Shown piece by piece: positions 10,707 through 45,870 of a DNA stretch of 64,000 bases. The notes beneath the pieces were generated by a model that saw only the letters and a program-made list of their open reading frames with translations, was not told the DNA's origin and did no database searches. Source of the stretch: Candidatus Binatia bacterium (GTDB lineage Bacteria; Desulfobacterota; Binatia; UBA9968). How positions within the stretch are numbered: position 1 is the stretch's first letter; each line of letters begins with the position of its first letter. The stretch covers positions 2,986-66,985 of the forward strand of contig JBOHVS010000376.1 of assembly GCA_050735975.1 (NCBI GenBank). Direction: 5' to 3'. A program made the position numbers and the translations under genes.

Positions 10707-10729
10707 CGAGTCTTTTTCAGCAGCCTGCT
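10707..10729. repeat. Family R1 half-site
   Basis: CGAGTCTTTTTCAGCAGCCTGCT contains the 20-mer GAGTCTTTTTCAGCAGCCTG, identical to the right arm at 108-127. It overlaps the stop of the amidohydrolase gene. Confidence 0.75.
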
Positions 10730-17274: not shown

Positions 17275-17324
17275 AGCTGTTCCTCCTTCAAGCAAGATAT
17301 TGGAGTGCTGGAGTGTTGGGCATC

Positions 17325-19868: not shown

Positions 19869-19945
19869 TGCAGGCCTTTTTGCTCGGCCTACAACACAGG
19901 TTTCTCGGCAGGCGGTCTACAGTGTAACTATCGCCTTGTTCAGGT

Positions 19946-21073: not shown

Positions 21074-21133
21074 TGATTTCCATTCTCGAGTTTTCAGTCC
21101 AGTAGAACTCGAGAGTGTTGGAAAACCTGTTTA

Positions 21134-21297
21134 CAGGCCGGTCAAAAAGATCTCAGATGCGAGGCGCGCATTCCGAGCAGATTGGGAAGGCTGAGGCCGA
21201 GCTTAACCTTAACCTCAAGCAGCGAGTGGAACGAGCGCAACGCCTGCCTGTGCGGCGCACGCAGACAGGAAGCGGGTGAGTCTTTTTCAACGCCCTG
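21134..21297. repeat. Composite: R1 arms enclosing R10 and R2 modules
   Basis: Left arm CAGGCCGGTCAAAAAGATCTCAGATGCGAGGCG, internal GCTTAACCTTAACCTCAAGC and CGCCTGCCTGTGCGGCGCACGCAGACAGG, right arm TGAGTCTTTTTCAACGCCC. Confidence 0.75.
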
Positions 21298-21308
21298 GGA
21301 GGGAGACC

Positions 21309-24825: not shown

Positions 24826-26382
24826 ATGAGTCATTCGTTATTGATGGGCGACGGCTTGCGCCGCAACGCCTATAAATTTCCTGTAAAAATGGCCGCGCGC
24901 GATCGTTACCGCCAAATTACCTACGGCGATTTGAACCGTAGAGTGAATCAGCTCGCAAACGGGCTGCTCTCGATGGGCGTTCGCAAGGGCGACTCGGTTA
25001 CTGTGCTGGCAGGAAATCGCATCGAGCATTTGGAAGTTCTTTTCGCGACTGCCAAGATCGGCGCATTGGCGATTCCGCTCGATATCAAATGGCGCGCGCT
25101 TGAGCTGGGTTCAGTGTTGTCGTTTTTCAAACCGCGCGTGCTGATTTTGCAGGACGAGTGCGTTGGTGAGTTCAAAAAGGCAAGGGCGTCGTATGACCTC
25201 AACTTCTTGAAAACCGTCGTCACATCAGACTTGAATTATGGCGGCTTGCTCGGAGGCCAGAGCGTAGCGGAGCCGCCGGTAAAGGTCAATGAAGATGATC
25301 CGTTTGCCGTGCTGCTCACCTCCGGTACTACGGGGTTTCCCAAGGGATGCCTCGCCAGCCACAGGACTTTCGTTTTTCACTGCATCAACAACGCCATCGA
25401 GAAAGGGCTTGGTGTTCACGACCGCGCAATCCTCGGGTCGCCTATCTACTTCAACGCGGGCCGTTCGTTCACCTTGGCGATCATCTACTATGGCGGCACG
25501 ATGTTTCTTCACGAGCGATTTGACCCAGAAGAGATTCTCAAAACTATCGAACGCGAGAAGATTACCTATATGGGCGCGGTGCCGACGATGTGCGAGCGCA
25601 TGCTGCAGGTCCCGAATGTAGAGCACTACGACACGAGCTCTCTGCGATGCCTTGCCATCACAGGGGGGAAAGTGCATGAGCCGATCCTGCAGGCGCTCAG
25701 GAAATACATCACTCCGAACATCTATCGGACCTACGCCTCCACCGATTCCGGGCAGATGGCGATTTCGAAGCCGGGAGATATCGAGACAAAACCACTGGCT
25801 GCGGGCCGTCCGGTTTGGTGCGTTGAATTGCGCGTCGTGGATGACAATAACAATCCAGTCGCGGTGAACGAAGTCGGCGAGATCGTCTGCCAGAGCCCGC
25901 TGGCGACTCAGGGCTATTATATGAACCCCGAGGCAACCAACGCGGCCTTCCGCGACGAGTGGTTCTACACGGGCGATCTCGGCTATTTCGATGAAGAAGG
26001 GTACTTGTTTGTCGTCGGGCGCAAGAAAGACATGGTCAAGAGCGGCGGCATCAGTGTTTATCCTTTAGAGATCGAAGGCGTTCTTTATAAGCATCCCGAG
26101 GTTGTCGAAGCGGCGGTGATCGGCGTGCCGGATCCGCAGTGGGGCGAAGCGGTCAAGGCCGTGGTCACCCTCAAGGAGGGATCGCGAACCACCGGCGAGG
26201 ATCTCATAGGTTTTTCCAAGGAATGGTTGGCGCCCTACAAGGTTCCCAAATCAGTGGACATCGTTTGCTCATTGCCGCACACAGAGACCGGAAAAGTAGC
26301 GAAGGAAAAACTCAAGGAAGCAATTCTCAACCAAACAAGCTTAAGACCGGACCGAGATAACTTGAACTCTAATCGAAGGTGA
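24826..26382 (+). CDS. AMP-forming acyl-CoA synthetase/ligase
   Basis: AMP-binding motifs LLTSGTTGFPKG, YGGTM, FYTGDLGYFDEEGYLFVVGRKKDMVKSGG. Confidence 0.9.
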   Translation: MSHSLLMGDGLRRNAYKFPVKMAARDRYRQITYGDLNRRVNQLANGLLSMGVRKGDSVTVLAGNRIEHLEVLFATAKIGALAIPLDIKWRALELGSVLSFFKPRVLILQDECVGEFKKARASYDLNFLKTVVTSDLNYGGLLGGQSVAEPPVKVNEDDPFAVLLTSGTTGFPKGCLASHRTFVFHCINNAIEKGLGVHDRAILGSPIYFNAGRSFTLAIIYYGGTMFLHERFDPEEILKTIEREKITYMGAVPTMCERMLQVPNVEHYDTSSLRCLAITGGKVHEPILQALRKYITPNIYRTYASTDSGQMAISKPGDIETKPLAAGRPVWCVELRVVDDNNNPVAVNEVGEIVCQSPLATQGYYMNPEATNAAFRDEWFYTGDLGYFDEEGYLFVVGRKKDMVKSGGISVYPLEIEGVLYKHPEVVEAAVIGVPDPQWGEAVKAVVTLKEGSRTTGEDLIGFSKEWLAPYKVPKSVDIVCSLPHTETGKVAKEKLKEAILNQTSLRPDRDNLNSNRR

Positions 26383-27422: not shown

Positions 27423-28238
27423 ATGGTCGAGATGAAAACCGTTTTAGAAAAAATCGATGAGGACTCCGGAGTCGCGTGGTTGACGTTAAACCGACCCGAA
27501 AGGAAGAACGCCATGAGCCGGAATCTGATTGCGGAGACGATCAGCATTCTCAAGGAACTGCGCGACAACGATAGAATTCGCTGCATCGTAACGACCGGAG
27601 CGGGAAATTCCTACTCTTCCGGGCTGGATCTCTATGACCTGAGGGAAAGTTGGAAGCGCAAGAGGAGATGGGACGAAGGGGGTTCGACTTATGAGATCGT
27701 CAAGTTGCTGCGCGCGTGCCCGCAAGTCACGGTTGCGGCCGTCAACGGTTGGTGTCTGGGCGGTGGCATGGCTCTGTTAAATGGGCACGACCTTGCGGTG
27801 GCCGCCGAATCGGCGATGTTCGGCATGCCGGAGATCATTCGGGGCAGCTATGGCGCTGTTGCAACGTCTACACTTTTCCACACAGGCATACCCTTCAAGA
27901 AAGCTTTCTACATCCAGTTAACAGGGAGAAATCTCACAGCAACTGAGGCGGAAAGAATCGGACTCGTTTCCCAGGTAGTGGCTGATAATCAACTGCTGCC
28001 GTACGTCGAGGCGCTGGCGAAAGAAATCGGCTCTCGAAACGGCGCGACTTTGGAGAGCGCAAAAATCGCGGCCTATATGGAAAAGGATATGGATTTTGAC
28101 ACCGCGCTTCGCACCGACGATCTCGTTTCGCACCGAATGAGGTATTACACCAATCCGTTAAGTGACGTGGAAGGCTACCTCCATTCTCAGAAGGGCGGCG
28201 GGAGCACGCGATATGTGAAACCGGAGGATAGAAAGTAA
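27423..28238 (+). CDS. Enoyl-CoA hydratase/isomerase family protein
   Basis: LTLNRPERKNAM, NGWCLGGGMALL, FGMPEIIRGSYG. SD GGAGGTGA upstream. Confidence 0.85.
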   Translation: MVEMKTVLEKIDEDSGVAWLTLNRPERKNAMSRNLIAETISILKELRDNDRIRCIVTTGAGNSYSSGLDLYDLRESWKRKRRWDEGGSTYEIVKLLRACPQVTVAAVNGWCLGGGMALLNGHDLAVAAESAMFGMPEIIRGSYGAVATSTLFHTGIPFKKAFYIQLTGRNLTATEAERIGLVSQVVADNQLLPYVEALAKEIGSRNGATLESAKIAAYMEKDMDFDTALRTDDLVSHRMRYYTNPLSDVEGYLHSQKGGGSTRYVKPEDRK

Positions 28239-28293: not shown

Positions 28294-30690
28294 ATGGACA
28301 AAGCGCCTCAATTTCTTAGCAGTTATAGAGCGCTGGACTTAACCGGCCTCGCTGGGCAGCTTTGCGGCCGTGTGCTGGCTGATCTTGGAATGGAAGTTAT
28401 AAAGGTCGAGGGGCCCGGCGGCGATCCAGTTAGAAGATTGGAACCTGTCGCGGAGTTAGGCGGGACTTCCTTAAGCCTTCCATTCGCTCATTTGAACGCC
28501 AACAAAACGAGCATGGTGCTCGATCTCCAAAATGCCCAAGGGCGAGAGACGTTCTTGCGTCTGGCCGAAAATGCTGACGTGGTTCTTGAGAGCTTTTCGC
28601 CGGGATTCATGGATTCGCTGGGCTTCGGGTACAAGCAGCTCGCGGAGGTTAATCCGCGGCTGGTAATGGCCTCGATCACCGGCTTTGGTCAAACCGGTCC
28701 AGGCAAGAACTACCCTTGCGCTGATATCGTCGCGGCGGCGATGGGTGGGCTGATGTATATTTCAGGGGATCCATCATTGCCTCCGTGCAAGGCGCCGGAA
28801 ACACAAGCTTACTACTTCGGCAGCCTCTTCGCCGCGATAGGGGTATTGGCCGCTCTGTACCATCGCGAGCAGTGCGGTCGCGGGGACTACGTCGACGTGT
28901 CCATGCAGGAGGCCCTGGCAACTCACGAGCATCTCATACGCCTCTACGCAAACGAAGGTCAAATCGTCAGACGGCAAGGGAGCCAGCACGGGCAGGTGGC
29001 CCCGGCGAGAATTTTTCCCTGTAAGGATGGGTATGTCTATCTATATGTTACGCGCCAGCATTGGAAGCTTTTTCTTGAGCTTTGGACTGGTCATCCGGTA
29101 GAGATGGACGGCGCGGAATGGGCGAACAATTTATACCGGCGGGCGCGCGTCGAGCAGATCAATCAACTGGTCTCGGAATTTACGAAGCAATACACGAAGG
29201 CAGAACTGACGGAGCTGTGCCAGGCGCGCGGTCTTCCGTGCACTCCCGTTAACAGGCCGGGTGATTTTATCCGCGACGAACAGGTTCGGACGCGCGGCTT
29301 TGTCTCGGAGATTCAATATCCTTTCGGCAAAGTCGAGCAGGTGGCGGCGCCGTTTCTAATAAACGGCAGCCGGCCGGAAGTGAGGCCGGCGCCCGCTCTC
29401 GGCGATTGCCAGCACGCGGCGCAGAATCGAGATCGCAATTCAGCGGAGCAAATGACAGCCAACGCTGCGAATGGTGGCGCGGGTGCGAGCCCTCCGTTGA
29501 AGGGAATGAGAATCGTCAGCTTCGATCATGTTCTAGCGGGTCCTTACGGCACGACGATTCTGGCCGAGCTAGGCGCCGACGTGATCAAGGTCGAATCCCG
29601 TAAGGGCGGATTGGACCCGTTCAGATTTTTCGGCACGGGCGAGGATCCGAATCTCTCTCCTCGGTTTCTCGAATTCAATCGCAACAAGCGATCGATTACA
29701 GTGAATCTCAAGACTGCCGATGGGCCAAAGATCATTCTAGACTTGGTGCGCCATTCGGACGCCGTGCTCGATAATTACAGCGTGGACGTTATGTCTAAAT
29801 TTGGGCTGGGCTACGACGATCTTTGCCGCGCCAGACCGGATATCATCAATTTGAGAATGCCCGGACTCGGCTGCACGGGTCCGAAGCGATACTACTCTAC
29901 TGTCGGCGTGAACATCACCGCATTCACTGGTCTGACCTATCTCTGGAATCATCCGGGCAAAACCAATCCACCGATCGGGTCGCAAACGGTCTTTCCCGAC
30001 TACGTCTCGGGGGTGCTGGCAGCGATCTTGGTCGTGGCGGGCGTTTTATACCGCAAACGGGCGCAAAAGGGCGCTTTCATCGACATGTCTCAAGGCGAGG
30101 TGACGGCCTATATGATCGGCGCGAGCCTGATGGAGGCAAAGGCTTTGGGCCGCGAGCCCGAGCCCATGGGCAACCATTCCGCGTTTGCGGCGCCGCATCA
30201 CTGCTACCCTTGTAAGGGAGAGGAACGTTGGTGCGTCATCGCTGTCGAGAATGAGGAACAGTGGCGCTCGCTGGCTGAAACTCTCGGCCAAGACGTCGAG
30301 CGCGATCAACGATTCAAAACCGTGGAGCAGCGGCTTCGGCATCGGGACGAGCTGGACGCTCTGATCGCGCAATGGACCCGAGAGAGGGACTGCTATGAAG
30401 TCATGCGCGCTCTGCAGAGAGTCGGCGTTCCCTGCGGTGTCGTGCAGAACGGCGCCGATTTGACCGCCGATCCTCATCTTAGAGAACGAGGTTTCATCAT
30501 CGGAGTCGAAAATGCGAGGCTGGGACGAGTGGTGTTGCCGAGTTTTCCGCTACGATTCGCCAACGCGAAATTAGATCCGAGATGGGAATTCCCGGAGCTC
30601 GGGCGTGACAATGAAGCGGTGCTGCGCGACGTCCTCGGCTACACCGGTGAAAAGATCGAGGGGCTTGCCACCAGGAATGTGTTGGCATAG
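28294..30690 (+). CDS. Family III (CaiB/BaiF) CoA-transferase, tandem A-B two-module fusion
   Basis: 798 aa. Module A is about residues 1-375 and module B about 400-798, joined by a low-complexity linker (...NRDRNSAEQMTANAANGGAGASPP...). Each module has the N-terminal Rossmann-like (L/V)xDLxxxxAG / GxxVIKVE signature. Confidence 0.9.
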   Translation: MDKAPQFLSSYRALDLTGLAGQLCGRVLADLGMEVIKVEGPGGDPVRRLEPVAELGGTSLSLPFAHLNANKTSMVLDLQNAQGRETFLRLAENADVVLESFSPGFMDSLGFGYKQLAEVNPRLVMASITGFGQTGPGKNYPCADIVAAAMGGLMYISGDPSLPPCKAPETQAYYFGSLFAAIGVLAALYHREQCGRGDYVDVSMQEALATHEHLIRLYANEGQIVRRQGSQHGQVAPARIFPCKDGYVYLYVTRQHWKLFLELWTGHPVEMDGAEWANNLYRRARVEQINQLVSEFTKQYTKAELTELCQARGLPCTPVNRPGDFIRDEQVRTRGFVSEIQYPFGKVEQVAAPFLINGSRPEVRPAPALGDCQHAAQNRDRNSAEQMTANAANGGAGASPPLKGMRIVSFDHVLAGPYGTTILAELGADVIKVESRKGGLDPFRFFGTGEDPNLSPRFLEFNRNKRSITVNLKTADGPKIILDLVRHSDAVLDNYSVDVMSKFGLGYDDLCRARPDIINLRMPGLGCTGPKRYYSTVGVNITAFTGLTYLWNHPGKTNPPIGSQTVFPDYVSGVLAAILVVAGVLYRKRAQKGAFIDMSQGEVTAYMIGASLMEAKALGREPEPMGNHSAFAAPHHCYPCKGEERWCVIAVENEEQWRSLAETLGQDVERDQRFKTVEQRLRHRDELDALIAQWTRERDCYEVMRALQRVGVPCGVVQNGADLTADPHLRERGFIIGVENARLGRVVLPSFPLRFANAKLDPRWEFPELGRDNEAVLRDVLGYTGEKIEGLATRNVLA

Positions 30691-30734: not shown

Positions 30735-31775
30735 ATGAAAATGTTCATTTTAGCGGTCTTTTGTCTATGGGCCGCCAGTTCATCGGCTGCGGCGCAGGGG
30801 AAACCATCAAAGGTAGCCGAGCTCGGCGCCTACTCGGGAGCGGATCGCCAAAAAATTCTTGAGGCAGGAGCCAAGAAGGAAGGCAAGGTGGTTTGGTATA
30901 CGACCCTGATCGCTTACAAGGAAATCGTAAAGCTTTTTGAGGGGAAGTATCCGGGAATAAAGGTTGAGGCCTACCGATCTAACTCTACCGATCTCCTTAA
31001 AAGGTTCCTGGCGGAAGCGCAGGCGGGACGCCATTTAGTGGACGTTATAGAAACCACTCCTCCTTCCCTAATGGCCGGACGGGACGCCAAACTTCTTGCG
31101 CCGTATTTCTCGCCCCATTTGAAATTATATCCGGATGACTCCAAAGAAGAAGCCGGTAAGGGAACGGTTTTTTGGACAACGGACCGTGAATCCTTGATCG
31201 GTCTGGGCTACAACAAAAACCACATCAAGACGGCGGATGTTCCGAAAAATTTTGCCGATCTCTTGAAGCCCGAATACAAAGGAAAGTTCGCCGTCAGCGG
31301 GGACGCCACGGGAGCCCGAATGATCGGCGCTATGTTGCGCGCCAAAGGCGAAGAATTCGTTAAACGGCTAAAGGATCTGGATGTCAAAATGCACATGGTA
31401 TCAGGAGGGGCGCTTCAAGAGTTGCTCGCCGCGGGCGAAATGGCGATGTCGTTTTCCATTTTTCGTAATCACGTACAGGTCACTCAGGGCAAAGGTGGGC
31501 CGACCGAGTGGGTTCCCCTTGACCTGGTGGTGGCGAATGCGGGAGGCGCGGCTCTGCCGGCTCATACCAACAATCCCCATGCGTCGCTCCTGTTTATCGA
31601 TTTTCTCATCAGTCCGGAAGGACAAGATCTGCTGGCGGAAAAATTCAAGTACGCGAGTTCTATGAAACAATACCCATTCAAGCGCTGGTATCCGGAAAAG
31701 GGCCTGACGACGGACCAATATGAAAAGAACTTCAACAAATGGCAGAAGCTGCTGCGGCAAATTGCACGACGATGA
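30735..31775 (+). CDS. ABC transporter periplasmic substrate-binding protein (family 1, Fe3+/thiamine/polyamine-like)
   Basis: Signal peptide MKMFILAVFCLWAASSSAAAQ. SBP_bac_1-like pattern (VVWYTT..., AGRHLVDVIE). Confidence 0.85.
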   Translation: MKMFILAVFCLWAASSSAAAQGKPSKVAELGAYSGADRQKILEAGAKKEGKVVWYTTLIAYKEIVKLFEGKYPGIKVEAYRSNSTDLLKRFLAEAQAGRHLVDVIETTPPSLMAGRDAKLLAPYFSPHLKLYPDDSKEEAGKGTVFWTTDRESLIGLGYNKNHIKTADVPKNFADLLKPEYKGKFAVSGDATGARMIGAMLRAKGEEFVKRLKDLDVKMHMVSGGALQELLAAGEMAMSFSIFRNHVQVTQGKGGPTEWVPLDLVVANAGGAALPAHTNNPHASLLFIDFLISPEGQDLLAEKFKYASSMKQYPFKRWYPEKGLTTDQYEKNFNKWQKLLRQIARR

Positions 31776-31804
31776 TACAGCCGTCCATCGGTTAAACGTG
31801 AATC

Positions 31805-33541
31805 ATGAGCCGGGCGCTGGAGATCAGTCCGCGAGTTTGGGCCCGGAGTTCGGGGCGAGCGTCTAACCCCAACTTCTGGCTGTTTATCGTAACAGCGGCT
31901 GTTCTCGTTTATCTTGTCGTTCCACCGTTTTTCTTTATCCTCTCGGCAAGCTTTACAGCCGAGACCGGCACCAACGTCGGCGAGCTGACCTTAAAACATT
32001 ACGCCAGCATTGTAGGTTCGGTGGATGATTTCGGTGTCCTGCTCTGGAATTCGTTTGTTTTTTCCGTTGGCAGCGCGCTTGGAGCGTTGTTCTTTGGCAC
32101 TCTTCTGGCGTGGCTGGCGGAGCGCACCAATGCTCCCTTTCAAAGTGTCGCCTACGTTTCCGCGTTCGTCTCCTTCGGAATCCCGGGGATTGTTAAAGTC
32201 ATAGGTTGGATACTTTTGTTGGGGCCGGAAGCGGGTCTGATCAACGTTATCGCCGAAGACCTCACTGGCATCTCGCCGGTATTTAATCTTTTTTCCATGC
32301 CGGGAATGATCATGGTGGAGGCCTTCGTCTGGACGCCGGTGGTTTTCTTGCTTATGGCAACTCCGTTCCGATCCATGGATCCGACTCTGGAGGAAGCGGC
32401 GCTGACGGCGGGAAGCAATAACTGGCAGGTCTTCCGCAGGGTGACTCTTCCCCTGGCCCTGCCGAGTGTGCTCGCGGTATTGATCTTAACCTTCGTCCGT
32501 TCGCTGGAGGCCTTCGAGATTCCAGCTCTAATAGGGCTGCCGGCAGGCGTCGAAGTTCTGACTACGAAGATTTATCTCCAGATTCGAACCGGCTTTCTGC
32601 CGAGATACGGCGAAGCGAGCGCCTATTCCGTCCTATTGATCGCGCTCGTCGGCGTGGTTTTGCTTTTCTATCATCGCGTAACTTCGCAGGGCTATAAGTT
32701 TTCAACCGTTACCGGAAAAGGCTTCCGACCCCGGCGAATCGATCTGCGTTTTTGGCGCTGGCTGGGTGGAGCGATTCTGCTGATCCTTCCTCTACTGCAG
32801 ATTCTTCCACTGGTGGCTTTGACGTGGTCGTCCTTTCTGCCATACGTCCAGCCGCCGTCCCAAAAGGCCCTGGCGGCTCTCTCATTGGACAACTACTCGT
32901 CGGCTTTCAGCGACGGCGCAATCATCTGGGCGGTGTTGAACAGTCTTTTTGTCAGCGTGACATCCGCGACTGCGGTGGTGGCGGTAACCTTCGTCGCCGC
33001 TTGGGTCGTGGTGCGGACGAATATCTCAAAGCGCTGGACGCTAGACCATTTGGCGACCGTCCCTTTAGTGTTTCCGGGACTCGTTATGGGTGTGGCTATT
33101 TTGAAGATGTATCTAACTTTGCCGGTGCCCATATACGGAACTCTATGGATTATCTTCTTCGCATTTTTGGTTCGATATCTTCCTTACGGCATTCGCTTTA
33201 GTTATGCGGGACTGCTGAGCATTCATCGAGAACTCGAGGAGAGTTCCGCAACGTGCGGCGGCAACTGGAGGCAAACGGTCAGAAAAATTCTCTTTCCGCT
33301 GATGCTGCCCACTCTGTTCGCCGGCTGGATCTACGTCTTTCTCATCACCATTCGAGAGCTGTCGGTGGCACTGCTGCTGTACAGTCCGGGCTCCCAAGTC
33401 GTAGCGGTTGTCATTTGGGAGCTTTGGGATAATGGAAGAATTGGCGAAGTGGCGGCGTTTAGCTTGGTCTTCACTCTCGGTACGGTGTTGCTCGCAGCTT
33501 TCTTCAAGCGACTCGCTCACCAACACAGCCTCAACGTCTAG
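31805..33541 (+). CDS. ABC transporter permease, duplicated BPD-type (FbpB/ThiP-like)
   Basis: 578 aa with about 12 TM segments and two EAA-like loops (MDPTLEEAALTAGSNNWQVFRRVTLP and HRELEESSATCGGNWRQTVRKILFP). Confidence 0.85.
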   Translation: MSRALEISPRVWARSSGRASNPNFWLFIVTAAVLVYLVVPPFFFILSASFTAETGTNVGELTLKHYASIVGSVDDFGVLLWNSFVFSVGSALGALFFGTLLAWLAERTNAPFQSVAYVSAFVSFGIPGIVKVIGWILLLGPEAGLINVIAEDLTGISPVFNLFSMPGMIMVEAFVWTPVVFLLMATPFRSMDPTLEEAALTAGSNNWQVFRRVTLPLALPSVLAVLILTFVRSLEAFEIPALIGLPAGVEVLTTKIYLQIRTGFLPRYGEASAYSVLLIALVGVVLLFYHRVTSQGYKFSTVTGKGFRPRRIDLRFWRWLGGAILLILPLLQILPLVALTWSSFLPYVQPPSQKALAALSLDNYSSAFSDGAIIWAVLNSLFVSVTSATAVVAVTFVAAWVVVRTNISKRWTLDHLATVPLVFPGLVMGVAILKMYLTLPVPIYGTLWIIFFAFLVRYLPYGIRFSYAGLLSIHRELEESSATCGGNWRQTVRKILFPLMLPTLFAGWIYVFLITIRELSVALLLYSPGSQVVAVVIWELWDNGRIGEVAAFSLVFTLGTVLLAAFFKRLAHQHSLNV

Positions 33542-33550
33542 CCCGAATTA

Positions 33551-33602
33551 TGTCCGGACATTTTTCAATCTGCAATTTACAGTTTGCATTTTGCAATGCA
33601 TG
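33551..33602. repeat. Family R4 (TGCAAA/TTGCA-rich)
   Basis: The reverse complement of 33551-33600 matches 47611-47660 at 46 of 50 positions (counted by hand). Confidence 0.85.
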
Positions 33603-33730
33603 AATAATACGACTTAGCGCCCACCGTTTTGCGTAGTCTTTCTTCTTCAGTCGATTGACAGGATACACCCCTTGGAGTAGACGTGGCTCAGCGAAGTCAT
33701 TGCGCCGAAAAACAACGCAAGGAGGTATCG

Positions 33731-34726
33731 ATGATGACGAAGATCGCCTCGGCTGTTCTCGCCGTTCTATTCTCCGGCTTTTTGAGCAACGGAGTTGCGG
33801 CCACCCTTGATCAAGCCAAAAAAGAAAGGACCGTAGTCCTTTACGGCGCAGGCAATGTTGAGCACTGGCAGAAGCTTAACACGGCCTTTCAAAAGAAGTA
33901 CCCGTTTCTCAAAGTCGAGATGTTTCGCGGCAATTGGGAGAAAGTGCGAAATCGCGTTATGACCGAGGGACGCGCGGGCAGTCATTTCGTTGATGTCCTG
34001 CAGATCGACGGCATCAACGGCTGGGTGCTCAAGGAGGAGGGTTATCTTCAGGCCCACAAGTCCGCCGAAACGGAAGCTTTCCCGGAAGCATTTCGTGATC
34101 CGTCGGGCATGCTTCCCTGTTGCCTTGACACGCTTACCAATGTCATCGGTTTCAACACTAGCCTTGTAAAAAAGAACGACGCGCCCAAGAGCTATCAAGA
34201 TCTCCTCAATCCCCGATGGAAAAACAAGCTTGGGATGGATGCCGACGAGGGCGAGTGGTTCGCGGGGCTGGTTACGGTATGGGGAAAAGAAAAAACCGTT
34301 GACTACTTCCGGACCTTGATGAAACAAAATCCGTCGTTGCGCCGGGGGCACACGCTGCTTGCGAATCTTACCGGCGCCGGTGAGTTTCCCGTCGCCGTGA
34401 ATTTGTTCGGTTACCGTGTTATGGAAATGAAGGCTCAAAGCGCAACCATTGACTTGATTAAAGCGGATCCACTCATGGTTCGGCCGGCGCATATGGCGCT
34501 GGCACGGCGAGCCCCCCATCCGAATGCCGGGCGACTTTATATTGATTTCGCTCTTTCCGTTGAAGGACAACAGATCATGGCGTCCTTAGGTCGGACCGTT
34601 GTCCGTCCGGGAGTGAAGCCCAAGTATCCTGAATTGACGGAAGGATTGAAGCTTTATCCTATCAAGCCCGAGATGGCCAAGAATTACGAGGAGCTTTCGA
34701 AACTGTATTACTCGATTGTGAAGTAG
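33731..34726 (+). CDS. ABC transporter periplasmic substrate-binding protein, paralogue of 30735..31775
   Basis: ATG at 33731 after GGAGG. Signal peptide MMTKIASAVLAVLFSGFLSNGVAA. AGSHFVDVLQ parallels AGRHLVDVIE in the first SBP. Confidence 0.85.
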   Translation: MMTKIASAVLAVLFSGFLSNGVAATLDQAKKERTVVLYGAGNVEHWQKLNTAFQKKYPFLKVEMFRGNWEKVRNRVMTEGRAGSHFVDVLQIDGINGWVLKEEGYLQAHKSAETEAFPEAFRDPSGMLPCCLDTLTNVIGFNTSLVKKNDAPKSYQDLLNPRWKNKLGMDADEGEWFAGLVTVWGKEKTVDYFRTLMKQNPSLRRGHTLLANLTGAGEFPVAVNLFGYRVMEMKAQSATIDLIKADPLMVRPAHMALARRAPHPNAGRLYIDFALSVEGQQIMASLGRTVVRPGVKPKYPELTEGLKLYPIKPEMAKNYEELSKLYYSIVK

Positions 34727-34757: not shown

Positions 34758-35579
34758 ATGGCTGAGTATCAAACTCTTTTAGTCAACAAGAATGACGGCG
34801 TGACGACGGTCACATTGAATCGCCCGGAGAAGCGGAACGCTATGAGCCCGCAGCTCCATCGAGAGATGTATGATCTGCTCAACGATCTCCGTTACGACAA
34901 GGACACGAGAGTCATCGTGATCACGGGGGCGGGAGAAAGCTTCTGCGCCGGACAGGATTTGAAGCAATATTTTCTCGAAATGGATTCTCAACCGGAACGA
35001 GTGCGGGACGAGGTGAGGGAAAAATCCCGCCAGTGGCGAAATGAGATCCTACGCAAAATGCCGCAGCCGGTGATTGCGAAGATCAACGGTTGGGTGTTTG
35101 GCGGCGGGTTCACCGTGGTAACCGGTTGCGACATCGCCATCGCGGCGGACGACGTGCAGTTCGGACTTTCGGAAGTCAATTTCGGCCATTTCCCCGGGGG
35201 TGAAGTGACCATCGTATTGACGGAGCATCTGCAGCCCAAGCACGGGCTCTACTACGCGCTCACGGGGAAAACCATGACCGCGAAAGAAGCCGAGCGCATC
35301 GGTTTGATCACCAAGGCTGTGCCGCGCGCCGATTTAGATAAAGAGGTCATGGAGATTGCGAATAACCTAAAAGAAAAGGCGCCGTCGGCGCTAAACGCCG
35401 TCAAAGAAGCGTGGTACTACACTTTCTACTCCAACCCGGAAGTCGCCTATGAAATATCCGGGTTGATTTCCGACAAGGCCAAACAAGCGATCGGCGGCCG
35501 GCCCGGATTACAACAATTCGCTCGCAAAGAATACCGGCCAGGACTCGGTTCGTATAAATTTGACGAAAAGAAGGAATAG
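34758..35579 (+). CDS. Crotonase, hydroxycinnamoyl-CoA hydratase/lyase (HCHL)-like subfamily
   Basis: VTLNRPEKRNAMSPQLHREM, GAGESFCAGQDLKQYF, NGWVFGGGF, GLSEVNFGHFPGG, C-terminal ...QQFARKEYRPGLGSYKF, which resembles the HCHL tail. Confidence 0.85.
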   Translation: MAEYQTLLVNKNDGVTTVTLNRPEKRNAMSPQLHREMYDLLNDLRYDKDTRVIVITGAGESFCAGQDLKQYFLEMDSQPERVRDEVREKSRQWRNEILRKMPQPVIAKINGWVFGGGFTVVTGCDIAIAADDVQFGLSEVNFGHFPGGEVTIVLTEHLQPKHGLYYALTGKTMTAKEAERIGLITKAVPRADLDKEVMEIANNLKEKAPSALNAVKEAWYYTFYSNPEVAYEISGLISDKAKQAIGGRPGLQQFARKEYRPGLGSYKFDEKKE

Positions 35580-35657
35580 ATCACGGGATTTTATTTCTTG
35601 CACTCCAGAAGTGTGAAAACATTTCATGTTGCCAACCGTAGTGACAAAAAACCTTTA

Positions 35658-35778
35658 TCGCGCCAAGACGCCAAGAACGCAAAGAAAATTCTTTTTTTCT
35701 TCGAACTTGGCGGCCTTTGCGCCTTTGCGCGGGACACTGAATCGGAAATCGCAAATCTAAAATCCAAAATTAAAAGTG
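35658..35778. repeat. Composite R6 + R5
   Basis: CGCCAAGACGCCAAG (35661-35675, identical to 13681-13695) ... TTGGCGGCCTTTGCGCCTTTGCGCG, then AATCTAAAATCCAAAAT. Confidence 0.8.
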
Positions 35779-35786
35779 GGGAAGTA

Positions 35787-36941
35787 ATGGATTTCCGATT
35801 GCCCGAAGAGCTGCAGATGCTGAAAGACACGGTCAGGAAGTTCGTCGACAACGAGCTGATTCCGATCGAGATGCACAGCCAGGAAGATAATGAGCTCAAG
35901 CCCGAGATCCGTGAGAGATTGGAAAAGAAGACTAAAGAGATGGGGTTGTGGATGTTCGATGTGCCGGAAGAGTATGGCGGCGCGGGGCTCGGCAGTCTGG
36001 CGCAAGTCTTGGTATGGGAAGAGATGTGCCGCACCATCGCCCTCCCGTCGCGCGGGCAGGGAATATTCGGACCGGAAGTGCGGCCGATTCTCTATGCGCT
36101 GAACGACGAACAAAAACAGCGCTTCTTCTATCCGATCCTTAGAGGCGAGAAGCATTTGTGTTTCATGCAGACCGAGCCCGATGCCGGCTCTGACCCGGGG
36201 TCGATGAAGACGCGCGCCGTGCGCCAAGGAGATCAGTACGTCGTCAACGGCACCAAGCGCTTCATTACCGGAGCGGACAAAGCGGATTTTGGCCAGCTTA
36301 TGGCCGTGACCGACCCGAGTAAAGGCTCGCATGGGGGCATCTCTTGCTTCATGGTCGATATGAAATCGCCGGGGCTCAAGATCACTGCCAGATATAAGAC
36401 CATGATGGGCGAAGAGCCGTGCGAGATCGTTTTTGACGATCTCAAAGTGCCGGCCCAGAATCTCGTGGGCGGAGAAGGCGAGGGCTTCAAGCTGGCGCAA
36501 AAGTGGCTCGGTATCGGTCGCCTGAAACATGGCGCGCGCGCTTTGGGCGTCTCGGAGCGCTGCATCGAAATGGGCTCGCGCTACGCGAAGCAGCGCGTCA
36601 CGTTCGGCAAGCCGCTTTCCGAACGGCAGGGGATCACTTTTAAACTTGCCGATTCTTACGTTGAACTGCACGCGGCGCGTCTGATGGTCTACCAGGCTGC
36701 GTGGAAGAACGACCAAAGAGAAGACATCCGCACCGAAGCCTACATGGCCAAGATGTTCGCCGACGAAATGTCCTTCCGCGTCGTCGATCGCGTGCTGCAG
36801 ATTCACGGCGGCATCGGTCTGACGCTGGATCTGCCGCTAGCAAAGTGGTTTGTCGATCAGCGCAGCCGGATGATTACCGAAGGCGCGTCCGAAGTTATGC
36901 GCATGGTCATCGCCCGGGAAGTTTTAAAGAAATACAGTTAA
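35787..36941 (+). CDS. Acyl-CoA dehydrogenase
   Basis: ATG at 35787 gives MDFRLPEELQMLKDTVRKFVD, parallel to the 42133 paralogue. The upstream 63 codons of ORF 35598 are repeat sequence. QTEPDAGSDPGS, ITEGASEVMR. Confidence 0.9.
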   Translation: MDFRLPEELQMLKDTVRKFVDNELIPIEMHSQEDNELKPEIRERLEKKTKEMGLWMFDVPEEYGGAGLGSLAQVLVWEEMCRTIALPSRGQGIFGPEVRPILYALNDEQKQRFFYPILRGEKHLCFMQTEPDAGSDPGSMKTRAVRQGDQYVVNGTKRFITGADKADFGQLMAVTDPSKGSHGGISCFMVDMKSPGLKITARYKTMMGEEPCEIVFDDLKVPAQNLVGGEGEGFKLAQKWLGIGRLKHGARALGVSERCIEMGSRYAKQRVTFGKPLSERQGITFKLADSYVELHAARLMVYQAAWKNDQREDIRTEAYMAKMFADEMSFRVVDRVLQIHGGIGLTLDLPLAKWFVDQRSRMITEGASEVMRMVIAREVLKKYS

Positions 36942-41148: not shown

Positions 41149-41973
41149 ATGGCAGTGACGAAAGAATACAAGACGGTCAAAGTTGACAAAGAAGACGGGA
41201 TCACGTGGGTCATTTTGAACCGGCCGGAGAAGAGAAACGCGATGAACCCGCAGCTTCACTACGACATGCTCGAAGCGCTGACGGAGCTGGAGGTCGACAA
41301 GGAAACGCAAGTGGTGGTAATTACGGGCGCCGGGCCGAGCTGGTGCGCAGGGCAGGATCTGCGCGAGTACTTTCGCGGCACCGACGATAACGCGATCGAA
41401 AGACGTAAGGCGAGCTGGGCCTCTCAGGAGTGGCGCTGGCGCAGGCTGTTCACCTTCCCAAAACCCACCATCGCCATGGTCAACGGGTTTTGCTTCGGCG
41501 GGGCTTTCACGCCGCTCATCGCCTGTGATTTTGCCATCGCCGCCGAGGACGCGATCTTTGGTTTGAGCGAAATCAACTGGGGTATCTTTCCGGGCGGATT
41601 GGTGAGCCGGGTTTTGGCGGATGCTATGAGTTATCGTGACGCCATGTACTACATCATGACGGGAGATCCGTTCGACGGCAAGAAGGCCGCGGAGTTGAAG
41701 CTCGTGAATTACGCTGTACCGAAGGAAAAGCTGCGTGAAGAAACAGTCAAGCTGGCGAAGAAGCTGATGGAGAAGAATCCGCAGGTGCTTAGAGCGGCGA
41801 AGGAAGTTTACAAGTACTGCCGCAATATGGATTACAACCAGGCCGAGGATTACATGTCGGCGAAGGGAACCGCTTTGCGGCTGAGCGATCCGGAAAAGGG
41901 ACGCGAGACCGGTATGAAGCAGTTCCTTGACGAAAAGACCTACCGGCCGGGATTGGGCACCTACAAGCGATAA
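41149..41973 (+). CDS. Hydroxycinnamoyl-CoA (feruloyl-CoA) hydratase/lyase-like crotonase (HCHL subfamily)
   Basis: Colinear with Pseudomonas HCHL as I recall it: KTVKV..EDGI.WVILNRPEKRNAM, KPTIAMVNG.CFGG, FGLSEINWGI.PG, NP.VLRAAK, and the diagnostic tail GMKQFLDEKTYRPGLGTYKR. SD AAGGAGGG upstream. Confidence 0.9.
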   Translation: MAVTKEYKTVKVDKEDGITWVILNRPEKRNAMNPQLHYDMLEALTELEVDKETQVVVITGAGPSWCAGQDLREYFRGTDDNAIERRKASWASQEWRWRRLFTFPKPTIAMVNGFCFGGAFTPLIACDFAIAAEDAIFGLSEINWGIFPGGLVSRVLADAMSYRDAMYYIMTGDPFDGKKAAELKLVNYAVPKEKLREETVKLAKKLMEKNPQVLRAAKEVYKYCRNMDYNQAEDYMSAKGTALRLSDPEKGRETGMKQFLDEKTYRPGLGTYKR

Positions 41974-41974
41974 G

Positions 41975-42117
41975 CAGACAGAGACAGAGATGAAGAGACA
42001 GAGAGGGATGAAGAGATAGAGACAGAGAAAAACAGACAGAGATAGTGAAAGAGATAGAGCCCTTGAAGGCCATTAGGTTCTTGGGCGGGATCTCTGTCTC
42101 AAATCTCTGTCTCTGTG
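41975..42117. repeat. Family R7 copy
   Basis: CAGACAGAGACAGAGATGAAGAGACAGAGAG ... TCTCTGTCTCAAATCTCTGTCTCTGTG. Confidence 0.75.
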
Positions 42118-42132
42118 TAATGGTTGATCAAC

Positions 42133-43299
42133 ATGGATTTCAACTTACCCGAAGAGCTTCAGGTACTGAAGGAAACGGTTCGAAAGTTCGTCGATCGAGA
42201 GCTGATCCCTCTGGAGCGGGAGTGCCGCCCGGAGGGCGAGGAGATGCCGGAAAAGTTCATTAAGCCGCTGCAGGAAAAAGCGAAAGCCATCGGATTGTGG
42301 TTGCTTGATGTGCCGCAGGAATATGGCGGGGCCGGTCTCGATCTGCTCAGCCGGTGCGTGATCATGGAAGAGGTGGCGCGGACGGTCGCGATTCCTTTTC
42401 GCTACGCGCCGATCTTTGGCCCTGAAGTGAGGCCGGTGCTGTTTCATTGCAACGAGGAGCAGAAAGAGCGGTTCCTTTTCCCGGTCATGCGGGGAGAGAA
42501 GCGTATGTGCTTCGCGCAGACCGAGCCGGATGCAGGCAGCGACCCCGCGGGGATGAAAACTCGCGCCGTTAGAGACGGCGATCATTATGTTGTCAATGGC
42601 ACAAAGCGCTTTATCACCGGTGCAAAAAACGCTGATTACGCGCAAGTGATCGCGGTCACCGATCCCGAGAAACGGGCGCGCGGCGGCGTTACTTGCTTCA
42701 TTGTCGACATGAAGGCTCCGGGAGTTACGCTTGAGCGGCTTTGGCCGACCATGATGGGCGATACGCCGGGTCAAATTCTATTCGAGAACGTACGAGTGCC
42801 TGCGGCCAACATTATCGGCGGCGAAGGCCAGGGCTTCTCCATCGCCCAGAAATGGATTCAAGAGGGACGCATACGCGGGCACGGCGCGCGGCCGGCCGGC
42901 ATCGCGCAGCGGGCGCTCGATATGATGATCGAGTACTCCAAGGTGCGGACGACGTTTGGCCGTCCGCTTTCGGATCGCCAGGCGATTCAGTTCATGATCG
43001 CCGACTCGGCGATGGAACTGCACGCCTGCCGATTGATGGTTTACGAATGCGCCTGGCGTCATGACCGGGAGGAAGACGTTCGCCAGCTTTCCTATATGAC
43101 CAAGATCATGTGCGCCGAAATGGCGAGCCGAGTCGTGGATCGCTCGATCCAAGTTCACGGCGGTGTCGGGCTCACTCGCGACCTGCCTCTCGAATGGTGG
43201 TACCGCCAGGTGCGGAGCATCCGCATCACCGAAGGGACGCCGGAAGTCCTACGTTGGCGACTAGCAGAACATCTCATCAAAAGTCATAAACCATTATGA
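42133..43299 (+). CDS. Acyl-CoA dehydrogenase, paralogue of 35787..36941
   Basis: MDFNLPEELQVLKETVRKFVD, QTEPDAGSDPAG, NGTKRFITGA, ITEGTPEVLR. Confidence 0.9.
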   Translation: MDFNLPEELQVLKETVRKFVDRELIPLERECRPEGEEMPEKFIKPLQEKAKAIGLWLLDVPQEYGGAGLDLLSRCVIMEEVARTVAIPFRYAPIFGPEVRPVLFHCNEEQKERFLFPVMRGEKRMCFAQTEPDAGSDPAGMKTRAVRDGDHYVVNGTKRFITGAKNADYAQVIAVTDPEKRARGGVTCFIVDMKAPGVTLERLWPTMMGDTPGQILFENVRVPAANIIGGEGQGFSIAQKWIQEGRIRGHGARPAGIAQRALDMMIEYSKVRTTFGRPLSDRQAIQFMIADSAMELHACRLMVYECAWRHDREEDVRQLSYMTKIMCAEMASRVVDRSIQVHGGVGLTRDLPLEWWYRQVRSIRITEGTPEVLRWRLAEHLIKSHKPL

Positions 43300-44549
43300 C
43301 GGCGATCGCGGATGCAAGTTCCCTAGCCCGCGTTGCGGGAGAGGGTCAGGGTGAGGGTGCAACCGCTCTCCTGCCCGGCTTCCGTGTCCTGGATTTGAGT
43401 TCTTCGATGGGGGCATTTTGCGGCAAGCTGCTGCGCGACCTGGGAATGGACGTTATCAAGGTCGAACAGCCGGGAGGCGACGCCGCCCGCTCCGAGCCGC
43501 CCTTTGCCAAAGGCCATACTCACCGCGAAGGAAGCCTTCGTTTCGCGTACCTCAACGCGGGCAAGCGCAGCATCACGCTCGACATCACGAAGGAGACCGG
43601 CCGGAAGCTCTTGTTCGACTTGGTGGCGCGCTCTGATATTGTGCTGGAAACCTTCGAACCGGGCTATCTGGCCGCGCACCATATCGGCTACGAGTCCATG
43701 ATAGCACGCCAGGAAAAAATAATTTTGGTTTCCCTCACCGGTTTCGGCCAGGACGGACCCTACGCTCATTTTAAGACACCGGATATCGTTGGCACGGCTA
43801 TGGGCGGTTTGCTCTATATCAGCGGCGATCCAAAGCTCACGCCATGCAATCCACCGGAGACGCAATCGTATTATTACGCGAGTCTTTTCGCGGCTTACGG
43901 CGTGATGCTCGCGCTCTGGCAGCGGCAGACGCGCGGCATCGGCGCGTTCATCGATGCGTCGATTCAAGCGAGCATGGCGCTGCACGAGCACGTCGCTTTC
44001 AACTATTCGGCGGAGGGGCGGGTGATGAAGCGCGCCGGCAGCCAGCACCAGCACAATGCGCCGGCCAATCTTTTTAAGTGCAAGAACGGTTACATCGCGC
44101 TCTTCGTCACGCAAAATCACTGGCCGCTTCTGCTGAAGGTTTGGGAAGATCATGCGCCGGAGCTCGACGATCCAAAGTGGATCAACAGCAACTTGCGGCG
44201 CGCTAACGCCGACTATATCAACGCGCAAGTGACTTCTTTCACTTCCCGGTTTCTCAAAGAAGACCTCGCCGAACTGATGCAAAAGCACGGCATACCGGGT
44301 CTGCCGGTCAACTCGCCGTCAGACTTTATGAAGGACCCGCACATACGGGCGCGGGGGTTTTTTAGCAAAGTCACACACCCGGTGCTTGGTCCCTATGATC
44401 AGCCGGGCAGCCCATTCATGGTGGACGGCAAACGCTCGGCGCCTTTGCCACCGCCGCTTTTGGGGCAGCACAACGAGGAAGTGTTTTGCGGCGAACTCGG
44501 TCTCACCCGGCGAGACCTGGAAGTGTTGGTCGCGGACGGCGTGATCTGA
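43296..44549 (+). CDS. Family III CoA-transferase, A-type subunit
   Basis: ATGA overlap with the ACAD. Colinear with module A of the 798-aa fusion (for example GGLLYISGDPKLTPCNPPETQSYYYASLFAAYGVMLAL versus GGLMYISGDPSLPPCKAPETQAYYFGSLFAAIGVLAAL). Confidence 0.9.
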   Translation: MTAIADASSLARVAGEGQGEGATALLPGFRVLDLSSSMGAFCGKLLRDLGMDVIKVEQPGGDAARSEPPFAKGHTHREGSLRFAYLNAGKRSITLDITKETGRKLLFDLVARSDIVLETFEPGYLAAHHIGYESMIARQEKIILVSLTGFGQDGPYAHFKTPDIVGTAMGGLLYISGDPKLTPCNPPETQSYYYASLFAAYGVMLALWQRQTRGIGAFIDASIQASMALHEHVAFNYSAEGRVMKRAGSQHQHNAPANLFKCKNGYIALFVTQNHWPLLLKVWEDHAPELDDPKWINSNLRRANADYINAQVTSFTSRFLKEDLAELMQKHGIPGLPVNSPSDFMKDPHIRARGFFSKVTHPVLGPYDQPGSPFMVDGKRSAPLPPPLLGQHNEEVFCGELGLTRRDLEVLVADGVI

Positions 44550-44550
44550 A

Positions 44551-44641
44551 TGCGAATGTCAAATTGCAAAGTGCAAAACGGAGATTGTGAAATTTCGGAC
44601 AAAGATTTGCGTTTTGCAATTTGCATTCTGCAATTTGCATT
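44551..44641. repeat. Family R4 palindromic copy
   Basis: AAATTGCAAAGTGCAAAACG ... CGTTTTGCAATTTGCATTCTGCAATTTGCA. Lies between the two CoA-transferase genes and contains the spurious ATG 44587. Confidence 0.8.
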
Positions 44642-44655
44642 GGACCGGGGAATCC

Positions 44656-45870
44656 GTGCATAGCGCGAATCGTATACTCGAGGGCGTTCGCATCCTGACT
44701 TTCACGACCGGGTACGCCGGTCCTTACGCCGGCAGGTTGTTGTCCGGGTACGGCGCCGAAGTCATTAAAATAGAGTCGCGCAAAGGCGGACTCGATACTT
44801 TCCGCCATTACGGACAGCACAAAGATATCGACGCGGCGCCCAGGTTCATCGAATGCAATCTCGGGGTTCGCTCCTTTTCCGTGAACCTTAAACACCCTAT
44901 CGGGGTTCGGCTCATCAGGGAGTTGGCCGGCAAATCGGATGCGATCTTGCAGAATTTTCGGCCCAGGGTGTTGGATAAACTGGGTTTGGGCGACGACGAA
45001 CTCAGAAAGGTCAACCCCAAACTGGTAATTTTGAAATTGCCGGGCTTCGGTTCCGAAGGACCCAAAAGCGGCTATGGGACCTGGGGATTCAATCTCACGG
45101 CCTTTTCCGGCATGACCTACCTCTGGAATCATCCTGAGCAGGATCGACCCATCGGCAGTCAAGGAGTTTATCCCGACCATCTGGGCTTCATTATGGGGCC
45201 GACCATCATGGTCGCCGCGCTGCTGCGCAGCCGGCTCACAGGGAAGGGAGTCTCCGTCGATCTGGCGCAGATTGAAGGCACCGCCTACACGCTGGGGTCG
45301 ACGTACTTGGATGCGGCCGTGAACAGCCGTGATCCACAGCCGAAAGGCAACCGCGACCCGGTTGCCGCGCCCCACGGCTGCTACCCCTGCGAGGGGGAGG
45401 ATCGTTGGTGCGTCATCTCAGTTCGGACTGAAGAAGAATGGCGTAGCTTTTGTCAAGTCATCGGCCAGACGGAATTGGCGAGCGATGCTCGTTTCGCGGA
45501 CCTTCAGTCCCGGATAAAGCATCTCCGTGAGCTTGACGTTATTGTTCAGCGATGGACGGAAGCGAGAAGCGCGGAAGAGGTGATGGCCAAGCTCCAATCC
45601 ATGGGCGTCCCCGCCGGTGTTGTGCAAACCGGCGCGGATCTCCTCAAGGACCCGCAGTTGCGACACAGGAACTACTTTGCCGCATTTTCGGACTCCCTTA
45701 TCGGTCCTTTCGAAATTCCTCGCGGCGGATTTTTGTTCAAAGGGATGACTGAAGAACCGCTGCGGCTGCCTAACAGGTTCGGCTCCGACAACGAGCAAAT
45801 TCTGGGAGATATTCTAGGTTACGACAAAGCATCCATTGCCAAGTGGCAAACCGAGGAAATTTTGACTTAG
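44656..45870 (+). CDS. Family III CoA-transferase, B-type subunit
   Basis: Colinear with module B of the fusion (IESRKGGLD, NLTAFSGMTYLWNHP, IGSQGVYPDH). GTG at 44656 is preferred because ATG 44587 lies inside a palindromic repeat. The start is uncertain. Confidence 0.85.
   Translation: MHSANRILEGVRILTFTTGYAGPYAGRLLSGYGAEVIKIESRKGGLDTFRHYGQHKDIDAAPRFIECNLGVRSFSVNLKHPIGVRLIRELAGKSDAILQNFRPRVLDKLGLGDDELRKVNPKLVILKLPGFGSEGPKSGYGTWGFNLTAFSGMTYLWNHPEQDRPIGSQGVYPDHLGFIMGPTIMVAALLRSRLTGKGVSVDLAQIEGTAYTLGSTYLDAAVNSRDPQPKGNRDPVAAPHGCYPCEGEDRWCVISVRTEEEWRSFCQVIGQTELASDARFADLQSRIKHLRELDVIVQRWTEARSAEEVMAKLQSMGVPAGVVQTGADLLKDPQLRHRNYFAAFSDSLIGPFEIPRGGFLFKGMTEEPLRLPNRFGSDNEQILGDILGYDKASIAKWQTEEILT

Follow-up and report, generated by a model that had tools for sequence, protein, structure and literature searches.

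A two-domain family III CoA-transferase gene of Binatia with BbsE-like and BbsF-like modules and one predicted nucleophile

The fusion gene and its nucleophile position

The window analyzed here is a stretch of 64,000 nucleotides from a Candidatus Binatia bacterium (assembly GCA_050735975.1, contig JBOHVS010000376.1, positions 2,986 to 66,985 of the forward strand). It contains a gene for a tandem (two-domain) family III CoA-transferase of 798 residues, referred to below as the fusion. This gene, its parts and the neighboring genes are listed in Table 1. The open reading frame (ORF) is complete and, according to the ORF listing, uninterrupted. An AGGA is found 8 nt 5' of the ATG, and the base composition is that of the flanks.

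Table 1. Features of the fusion, its neighborhood and the unfused paralogous module (window coordinates).
Feature	Position	Strand	Basis or remark
Two-domain family III CoA-transferase gene (fusion)	28294..30690	+	complete ORF, ATG, 798 aa + stop
Module A (residues 1-372), BbsE-like Asp-less CoA_transf_3 module	28294..29409	+	best PDB match 9fn0_A, alignments, A-type clade
Tyr173-Tyr174 codons	28810..28815	+	Tyr173 codon 28810-28812; Tyr173 in the catalytic Asp169 column of CaiB/Frc
Inter-module linker (residues 373-400)	29410..29493	+	variable, Ala/Asn/Gly-rich, predicted disordered
Module B (residues 401-798), BbsF-like Asp-bearing, predicted catalytic CoA_transf_3 module	29494..30687	+	9fn0_B match; complete C-terminus
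Asp569 codon, predicted covalent nucleophile	29998..30000	+	aligns with CaiB/Frc Asp169 and 9fn0_B Asp178
Crotonase-fold gene directly upstream of the fusion	27423..28238	+	best family match hydroxycinnamoyl-CoA hydratase/lyase, below curated cut-off
ABC-transporter genes (solute-binding protein, fused permease, second solute-binding protein)	30735..34726	+	between fusion and HCHL
p-Hydroxycinnamoyl-CoA hydratase/lyase (HCHL) homolog	34758..35579	+	NCBIfam NF006588, 283.7 bits (cut-off 276)
Acyl-CoA dehydrogenase, conserved downstream partner	35598..36941	+	profile and synteny
Unfused paralogous module	41149..45870	+	HCHL, acyl-CoA dehydrogenase, A-type and B-type CoA-transferase
HCHL of the unfused module	41149..41973	+	414 bits, equivalog
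Acyl-CoA dehydrogenase of the unfused module	42124..43299	+	between HCHL and A-type CoA-transferase
A-type CoA-transferase, 'ETQSYYY' (Tyr at the Asp position)	43296..44549	+	45% identical to module A
B-type CoA-transferase, 'VYPDH' (Asp present)	44587..45870	+	43% identical to module B

The Pfam profile for this family (PF02515, CoA_transf_3) scores 640.6 bits on the fusion (cut-off 23.3) and aligns twice, both times over nearly its whole length; residues 11-370 make up the first stretch (profile positions 4-363 of 366). A single ORF made up of two CoA_transf_3 modules, as described in the first-pass annotation of this DNA, is thus confirmed. In the NCBIfam scan, generic family III models were matched, each in two stretches and all far under their equivalog cut-offs; no specific model was matched. 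The two modules are 26-27% identical to each other in two MAFFT alignments and, judged by their sequences, are diverged paralogs, which is also how they had first been described. Module A is devoid of the C-terminal 'GYSxxEIxxL' helix, which is retained, according to the alignments, in A-type proteins encoded by separate genes and in BbsE.

Ala, Asn and Gly abound in the linker (QHAAQNRDRNSAEQMTANAANGGAGASP), a segment described as low-complexity in the first pass. It is the least conserved part of the protein (frequency of the major residue 0.40, compared to 0.74-0.91 in the domains). Its length differs by tens of residues across the aligned homologs, some of which have a markedly shorter linker.

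(a) The nucleophile position was assigned from two MAFFT alignments with CaiB, Frc (YfdW) and YfdE from E. coli MG1655 and with both chains of the benzylsuccinate CoA-transferase BbsEF (PDB 9fn0), the sequences of which were rebuilt from HMMER alignments. The motifs PETQAYYFGSLF in module A and 'VFPDYVSGVL' in module B are present and carry Tyr173 and Asp569, respectively. A single MAFFT column unites the Asp from CaiB ('YTAD'), Frc ('ALGD'), YfdE ('SLAD'), 9fn0 chain B ('NYTD') and module B ('VFPD569'). The same column, which is that of the catalytic Asp169 from CaiB and Frc, holds Tyr173 in module A and also a Tyr in 9fn0 chain A ('NQAY'). HMMER pairwise alignments to both 9fn0 chains concur. 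The by-eye alignment of the first pass, with Tyr in module A and Asp in module B, is therefore correct. The hallmark of family III, an Asp equivalent to Asp169, is found in module B and is missing from module A.

(b) In 9fn0 chain B, the aligned Asp is residue 178 by counting, and PDB entry 9fol has the title 'BbsEF, D178-CoA adduct'. Asp569 is thus homologous to an experimentally trapped nucleophile. As far as can be judged from these alignments, each chain has one canonical nucleophile (Asp569), as had been concluded for the A-B unit in the first pass.

(c) The Asp of module B is kept in 144 of 145 aligned sequences (the fusion and 144 fused cluster representatives, see below). The sole exception is P0263, the domains of which appear to be ordered differently. 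Within this protein (883 aa), module A of the fusion aligns to residues 476-857, and the column of the usual C-terminal Asp holds a Trp, which suggests a reversed or otherwise rearranged domain order. At the corresponding position of module A, the same 145 sequences are variable (Y 48, S 14, E 12, Q 11, H 10, D 9, F 8, W 7; other residues make up the rest). Among 15 close homologs, Tyr173 is replaced by Phe in two, while Tyr174 is invariant. The hydroxyl group of Tyr173 thus seems dispensable, which disfavors a role as nucleophile.

Homologs, known systems and predicted structure

(a) Fused homologs are abundant. A word-indexed search resulted in more than 120 full-length fused homologs (761-833 aa, 63-78% identity) from independent metagenome assemblies; those which are named originate from Binatia, 'Deltaproteobacteria' and Acidoferrales. 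An exhaustive HMMER search of cluster representatives (50% identity) gave 59,943 matches, the best 150 of which were examined. Among these best 150, 144 have at least 700 residues (32-61% identity), nearly all of them being aligned across both modules. The linker is in frame in the homologs even though its length varies. The fusion is thus genuine, as had been assumed. Its implied rarity did not hold up: nearly all of the best representatives are fused, and 2401 two-domain type III sequences had already been mapped in 2018 (PMC6006322).

In one orthologous locus (L009, 8848-12404), the fused gene is split into ORFs of 380 aa and 638 aa. This break is likely to be a frameshift or assembly error in that metagenome-assembled genome (MAG), or the gene is a pseudogene. 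Upon tblastn analysis of a plasmid collection, mostly single-module genes with generic 'CoA transferase' names were found, each being matched twice; there were also a few full-length matches in a single piece (Paraburkholderia caribensis, H25; Rhodococcus opacus B4, H29).

(b) The nearest solved relatives are the two chains of BbsEF. Chain A is the best PDB hit of module A (E 3.4e-59), and chain B that of module B (residues 401-797, E 4.7e-55). The comparison to BbsEF proposed in the first pass was apt, module A being of the BbsE-like, Asp-less type and module B of the BbsF-like, Asp-bearing type. Both systems have a Tyr in the A-type and the Asp (Asp178 with the CoA adduct in BbsEF) in the B-type partner, and they share the A-then-B order. 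Both also have an acyl-CoA dehydrogenase and a crotonase-fold enzyme nearby (BbsG and BbsH in the bbs operon; PMC10818641). There are, however, several differences. BbsE and BbsF are separate polypeptides, while the fusion is a single ORF, and they are only about 31-34% identical to the corresponding modules. BbsE keeps the C-terminal helix that module A has lost. No glycyl-radical enzyme/benzylsuccinate synthase, BbsCD-type SDR (short-chain dehydrogenase/reductase) or BbsAB-type thiolase is encoded adjacent to the fusion, and its crotonase-fold partners are homologs of hydratase/lyases rather than being of the BbsH type. Orthology to BbsEF was rejected based on the low identity, the different gene context and the single chain.

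(c) The fusion has tandem type III domains, a poorly conserved linker and an Asp in the C-terminal domain, which are the characteristics of the two-domain class. It is an uncharacterized member of this class, with DddD and PtmU4 being compared by their descriptions only. Mycobacterium tuberculosis Rv1866, for which the papers found only state 'hypothetical protein', may be another member. The essential Asp602 of DddD is located in its C-terminal domain. DddD from Marinomonas and Endozoicomonas differs from the fusion in having additional dimethylsulfoniopropionate (DMSP) lyase activity and in being encoded in a DMSP catabolic operon. It has two CaiB domains (positions 1-416 and 439-821; PMC7174347). 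The tandem arrangement was noted for DddD in 2007, and DddD was then the sole characterized two-domain member; it is an outgroup to the other two-domain enzymes in the analysis by Dong et al. (PMC6006322). SAR202 genomes code for CoA-transferases that have DddD as best hit (PMC5395668).

PtmU4, described in 2018, also consists of two type III domains with the catalytic Asp in the C-terminal domain; mutation of this conserved residue lowers the activity 125-400-fold (PMC6006322). It differs from the fusion in transferring the acyl group to a sulfur donor, for which it works together with an acyl-CoA synthetase and sulfur-carrier proteins (PMC6006322). From the location of its catalytic Asp (D430, compared to residue 569 in the fusion), its N-terminal domain would be shorter. 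PtmU4 also occurs in other taxa and in another gene context than the fusion.

Both the two-domain architecture and the C-terminal location of the catalytic Asp were thus already established. In the literature search, no report was found that the two halves correspond one-to-one to subunits of the BbsE and BbsF type or that split and fused members are mixed in both clades (see (e)), but the paper on 9fn0 may contain it; nothing relevant turned up on the BbsEF structure or on a 'fused family III CoA-transferase'. By the assignments reported here, an abundant group of unnamed 'CoA transferases' of ca. 800 aa, which occurs in Binatia and in related, uncultured bacteria from soil and groundwater, can be placed in a defined class.

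(d) The structure of the single chain was predicted by AlphaFold2, using an alignment of 120 sequences (mean pLDDT 84.8, pTM 0.91). Low confidence is limited to residues 214-232, 375-396 (the linker, with pLDDT below 50) and 447-450. With a pTM of 0.91 for a chain with two modules, the packing of module A against module B is confidently fixed in the model. The chain is predicted to be an intramolecular interlocked pseudo-heterodimer. Of the covalent pseudo-heterodimer proposed in the first pass, the fixed packing is thus supported by the AlphaFold2 model, while the interlocking itself, with mutual threading of the modules, is a prediction.

The best Foldseek matches of the model were the BbsEF chains (9fn0_B, TM 0.91); next came human SUGCT, Frc, YfdE, Rv3272 and Mct (TM 0.73-0.88 for the group of Frc/YfdW, CaiB, YfdE, SUGCT and Mct). 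The latter enzymes resemble the fusion in their fold, and the Asp-based mechanism is expected to apply to module B. In homodimeric family III enzymes, each dimer contains two identical sites, while in the fusion both halves reside in one chain with one Asp site. PDB searches by sequence and by fold matched only single-module chains (350-460 residues) and no two-module chain, so that a solved structure for a two-domain member does not appear to exist. A structure of the fusion would therefore reveal how an interlocked dimer is built from a single chain. It would be the first example showing two mutually threaded rings folding from one polypeptide.

In family III enzymes, which are interlocked dimers, the pocket is formed by one subunit's Asp-bearing Rossmann (large) domain and the other subunit's small domain (PMC9196870; PMC9813914). 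Among the orthologs of the fusion, conservation is highest for the large domain of module B (0.91), followed by the large (0.84) and small (0.81) domains of module A and the small domain of module B (0.74). When diverse fused families are compared, module A's small domain is the least conserved (0.35; 0.52 for that of module B). Such variability across families would be expected for a specificity-determining element. At the level of sequence conservation, this pattern fits an Asp pocket to which module B contributes its large and module A its small domain.

(e) The window contains an unfused paralogous module (Table 1), which is a natural unfused control for the fusion. Its A-type and B-type genes are separated by only 37 nt. 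Upon scanning of GTDB species genomes, fused orthologs (61-71% identity) were found in MAGs from Binatia, Deltaproteobacteria and Thermodesulfobacteriota. Relatives from Dehalococcoidia/SAR202 are 33-39% identical; in most of these, two separate ORFs stand side by side, again with A before B. A neighbor-joining tree was computed from 43 A-type and 43 B-type modules (fused, split, and both 9fn0 chains), with CaiB as root. The A clade and the B clade are each monophyletic, and split and fused members are mixed in each of them. The divergence of A and B is thus older than the fusions. In both clades, the fused modules have their nearest relative, apart from orthologs, in the split pair from the window. 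Most likely, the fusion arose from adjacent A-type and B-type genes for a BbsEF-like heteromeric enzyme by loss of the stop codon and of the short spacer.

Gene neighborhood and candidate substrate

(a) The crotonase-fold gene directly upstream is the neighbor most consistently linked to the fusion in the orthologous loci. It precedes the fusion in L004, L005, L006, L007 and L009 and is found nearby in L012. Downstream, the HCHL and acyl-CoA dehydrogenase genes follow the fusion in six of the 11 orthologous loci (86-94% and 85-94% identical, respectively). The HCHL homolog matches PDB entries 6l3o and 2vss with an E-value of about 1e-65 and keeps the 'KxYF' and 'GLSE' motifs. The ABC-transporter genes, which are inserted between the fusion and the HCHL gene, vary in presence across the orthologous loci. 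The permease encoded in this insertion is a fused double one of 578 aa; an adjacent ATPase gene is lacking.

The acyl-CoA dehydrogenase gene has been called from a TTG codon. About 60 N-terminal residues do not match any acyl-CoA dehydrogenase (ACAD) profile or structure, matches beginning at about residue 64. The true start codon is probably located further downstream.

(b) The split A/B pair is preceded by a clearer HCHL gene and by another acyl-CoA dehydrogenase gene (Table 1). Both CoA-transferase units in the window are thus accompanied by genes for HCHL and acyl-CoA dehydrogenase.

(c) Based on this neighborhood, we tentatively suggest that the fusion might activate a 3-substituted propionate (e.g., a dihydro-hydroxycinnamate) without consumption of ATP, an assignment which is possible but doubtful. 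The neighboring acyl-CoA dehydrogenase would then desaturate the CoA product, and the HCHL-type hydratase/lyase would hydrate and cleave it into an aldehyde and acetyl-CoA. The released acetyl-CoA could be the next CoA donor, which would close the CoA loop. This recurrent association with genes for HCHL and acyl-CoA dehydrogenase suggests a route by which phenylpropanoid-like acids would enter side-chain shortening without ATP. If confirmed, such a route would bear on the turnover of lignin-derived carbon.

(d) The wider window fits an organic-acid or aromatic catabolic region. Positions 18672-22460 code for an acyl-CoA dehydrogenase (398 aa), a 375-aa paralog which matches only C-terminal ACAD domains, and a thiolase-like lipid-transfer protein (Thiolase_C_1). 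We take this layout to resemble that of heteromeric alpha/beta ACADs which occur together with Ltp-type enzymes for bulky or branched side chains. Three Amidohydro_2 genes and an HpcH/HpaI aldolase gene are found at 10728-11732, 16249-17328, 46556-47560 and 47880-48743. The Amidohydro_2 family includes decarboxylases of the LigW/ACMSD type and hydratases. Additional transporters are TctA (14063-15562) and a fused TRAP DctM (48979-50931).

Predicted mechanism and alternative readings

(a) We consider it probable that the fusion is a two-domain type III enzyme which consists of fused BbsEF-type A and B subunits and has a single competent site at Asp569. According to the structural model, the chain would pack as an intramolecular pseudo-heterodimer. 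By homology to the characterized enzymes, only one of the two symmetry-related pockets would be competent, in which module B's large domain, bearing Asp569, is combined with module A's small domain. Asp569 would attack the donor acyl-CoA, resulting in an aspartyl-acyl mixed anhydride. An aspartyl-CoA thioester would then form, and the acceptor carboxylate would receive the CoA from it, in the same way as in Frc, CaiB and BbsF. Since Tyr173 stands in for the nucleophile, module A would be a structural partner without catalytic function, and its small domain would probably set the substrate specificity. The fusion may ensure a 1:1 stoichiometry and keep A paired with B, the genome having a paralogous A/B pair as well. 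For annotation, the resulting rule would be to take the C-terminal Asp as the predicted nucleophile, to regard the N-terminal module as non-catalytic, and to consider its small domain the likely specificity element.

(b) Several observations weigh against parts of this reconstruction. None of the 14 positions found to be invariant across the alignment of seven sequences has been lost from module A, which is also well conserved among the orthologs. The module is thus not decaying and could keep a role in ligand binding. About 15% of the fused families (9 D and 12 E among the 145 sequences) carry Asp or Glu at the module A position, so that a single active site is not universal in the class and some two-domain enzymes may have retained two carboxylate sites. 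With respect to the substrate, the pair of HCHL and acyl-CoA dehydrogenase genes is found downstream of the fusion in only six of the 11 loci. In addition, the cluster contains a gene for an AMP-forming acyl-CoA ligase (24826-26382), three genes upstream of the fusion, which weakens the need for activation by a transferase.

The fused representatives with Asp or Glu in module A include P0176, P0226, P0255, P0192, P0217 and P0247.

(c) The modules might pair between chains, as a domain-swapped homodimer or a higher oligomer with the same catalytic logic, which we consider unlikely. BbsEF has the composition alpha2beta2. The long disordered linker could reach either partner, and a single-chain AlphaFold2 model cannot test intermolecular pairing; BbsEF has been termed a heterotetramer (PMC10818641). 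However, the high pTM of the monomer means that a confident intrachain arrangement exists, and the markedly shorter linkers in some homologs favor local pairing.

(d) Somewhat less likely still is that the fusion couples CoA chemistry to a second reaction, either as a DddD-like lyase or by PtmU4-like formation of a thiocarboxylic acid. Both characterized two-domain type III enzymes are non-canonical, and the thioacid cassette pairs a two-domain enzyme with an acyl-CoA synthetase (PMC6006322), to which the upstream ligase could correspond; module A has also kept its family-invariant residues. Of the orthologous loci, however, L009 alone has retained the ligase, while the partners that are conserved are an acyl-CoA dehydrogenase and enzymes of the crotonase fold. 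The window ORFs that were scanned did not include any sulfur-carrier gene. The nearest solved relative, BbsEF, is a genuine transferase, and the position of D430 in PtmU4 implies an N-terminal domain much shorter than that of the fusion. The reported thioacid group is, furthermore, limited to Actinobacteria, Betaproteobacteria and Gammaproteobacteria (PMC6006322).

A related and equally improbable option is that the pocket of module A is a second functional site with a different chemistry, be it a DddD-like lyase or a site for holding or channeling CoA or the acyl group. This would account for the family-invariant residues, the invariant Tyr174 and the strong conservation among orthologs. If true, one chain would combine two chemistries in a pathway with the adjacent hydratase/lyases.

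(e) It is very unlikely that both modules are catalytic, with Tyr173 or Tyr174, or a carboxylate elsewhere in the pocket, as the nucleophile of module A. Tyr174 is invariant and Tyr173 nearly so among the orthologs of this well-conserved module. However, the replacement of Tyr173 by Phe in two of the 15 homologs and the Ser, Gln, His, Trp, Leu or Gly found in fused families argue against it. Chain A of BbsEF also has a Tyr, with the reported CoA adduct being on D178 of chain B. We know of no Tyr-based family III mechanism.

(f) Adjacent split A/B pairs exist in the window and in Dehalococcoidia, but an assembly or frameshift artefact that joined two such genes is practically ruled out by the continuous frame, by the full-length fused proteins from more than 120 independent assemblies and the 144 fused cluster representatives, by a linker that stays in frame at varying length, and by the specific lack in module A of the C-terminal helix which split A-type proteins retain.

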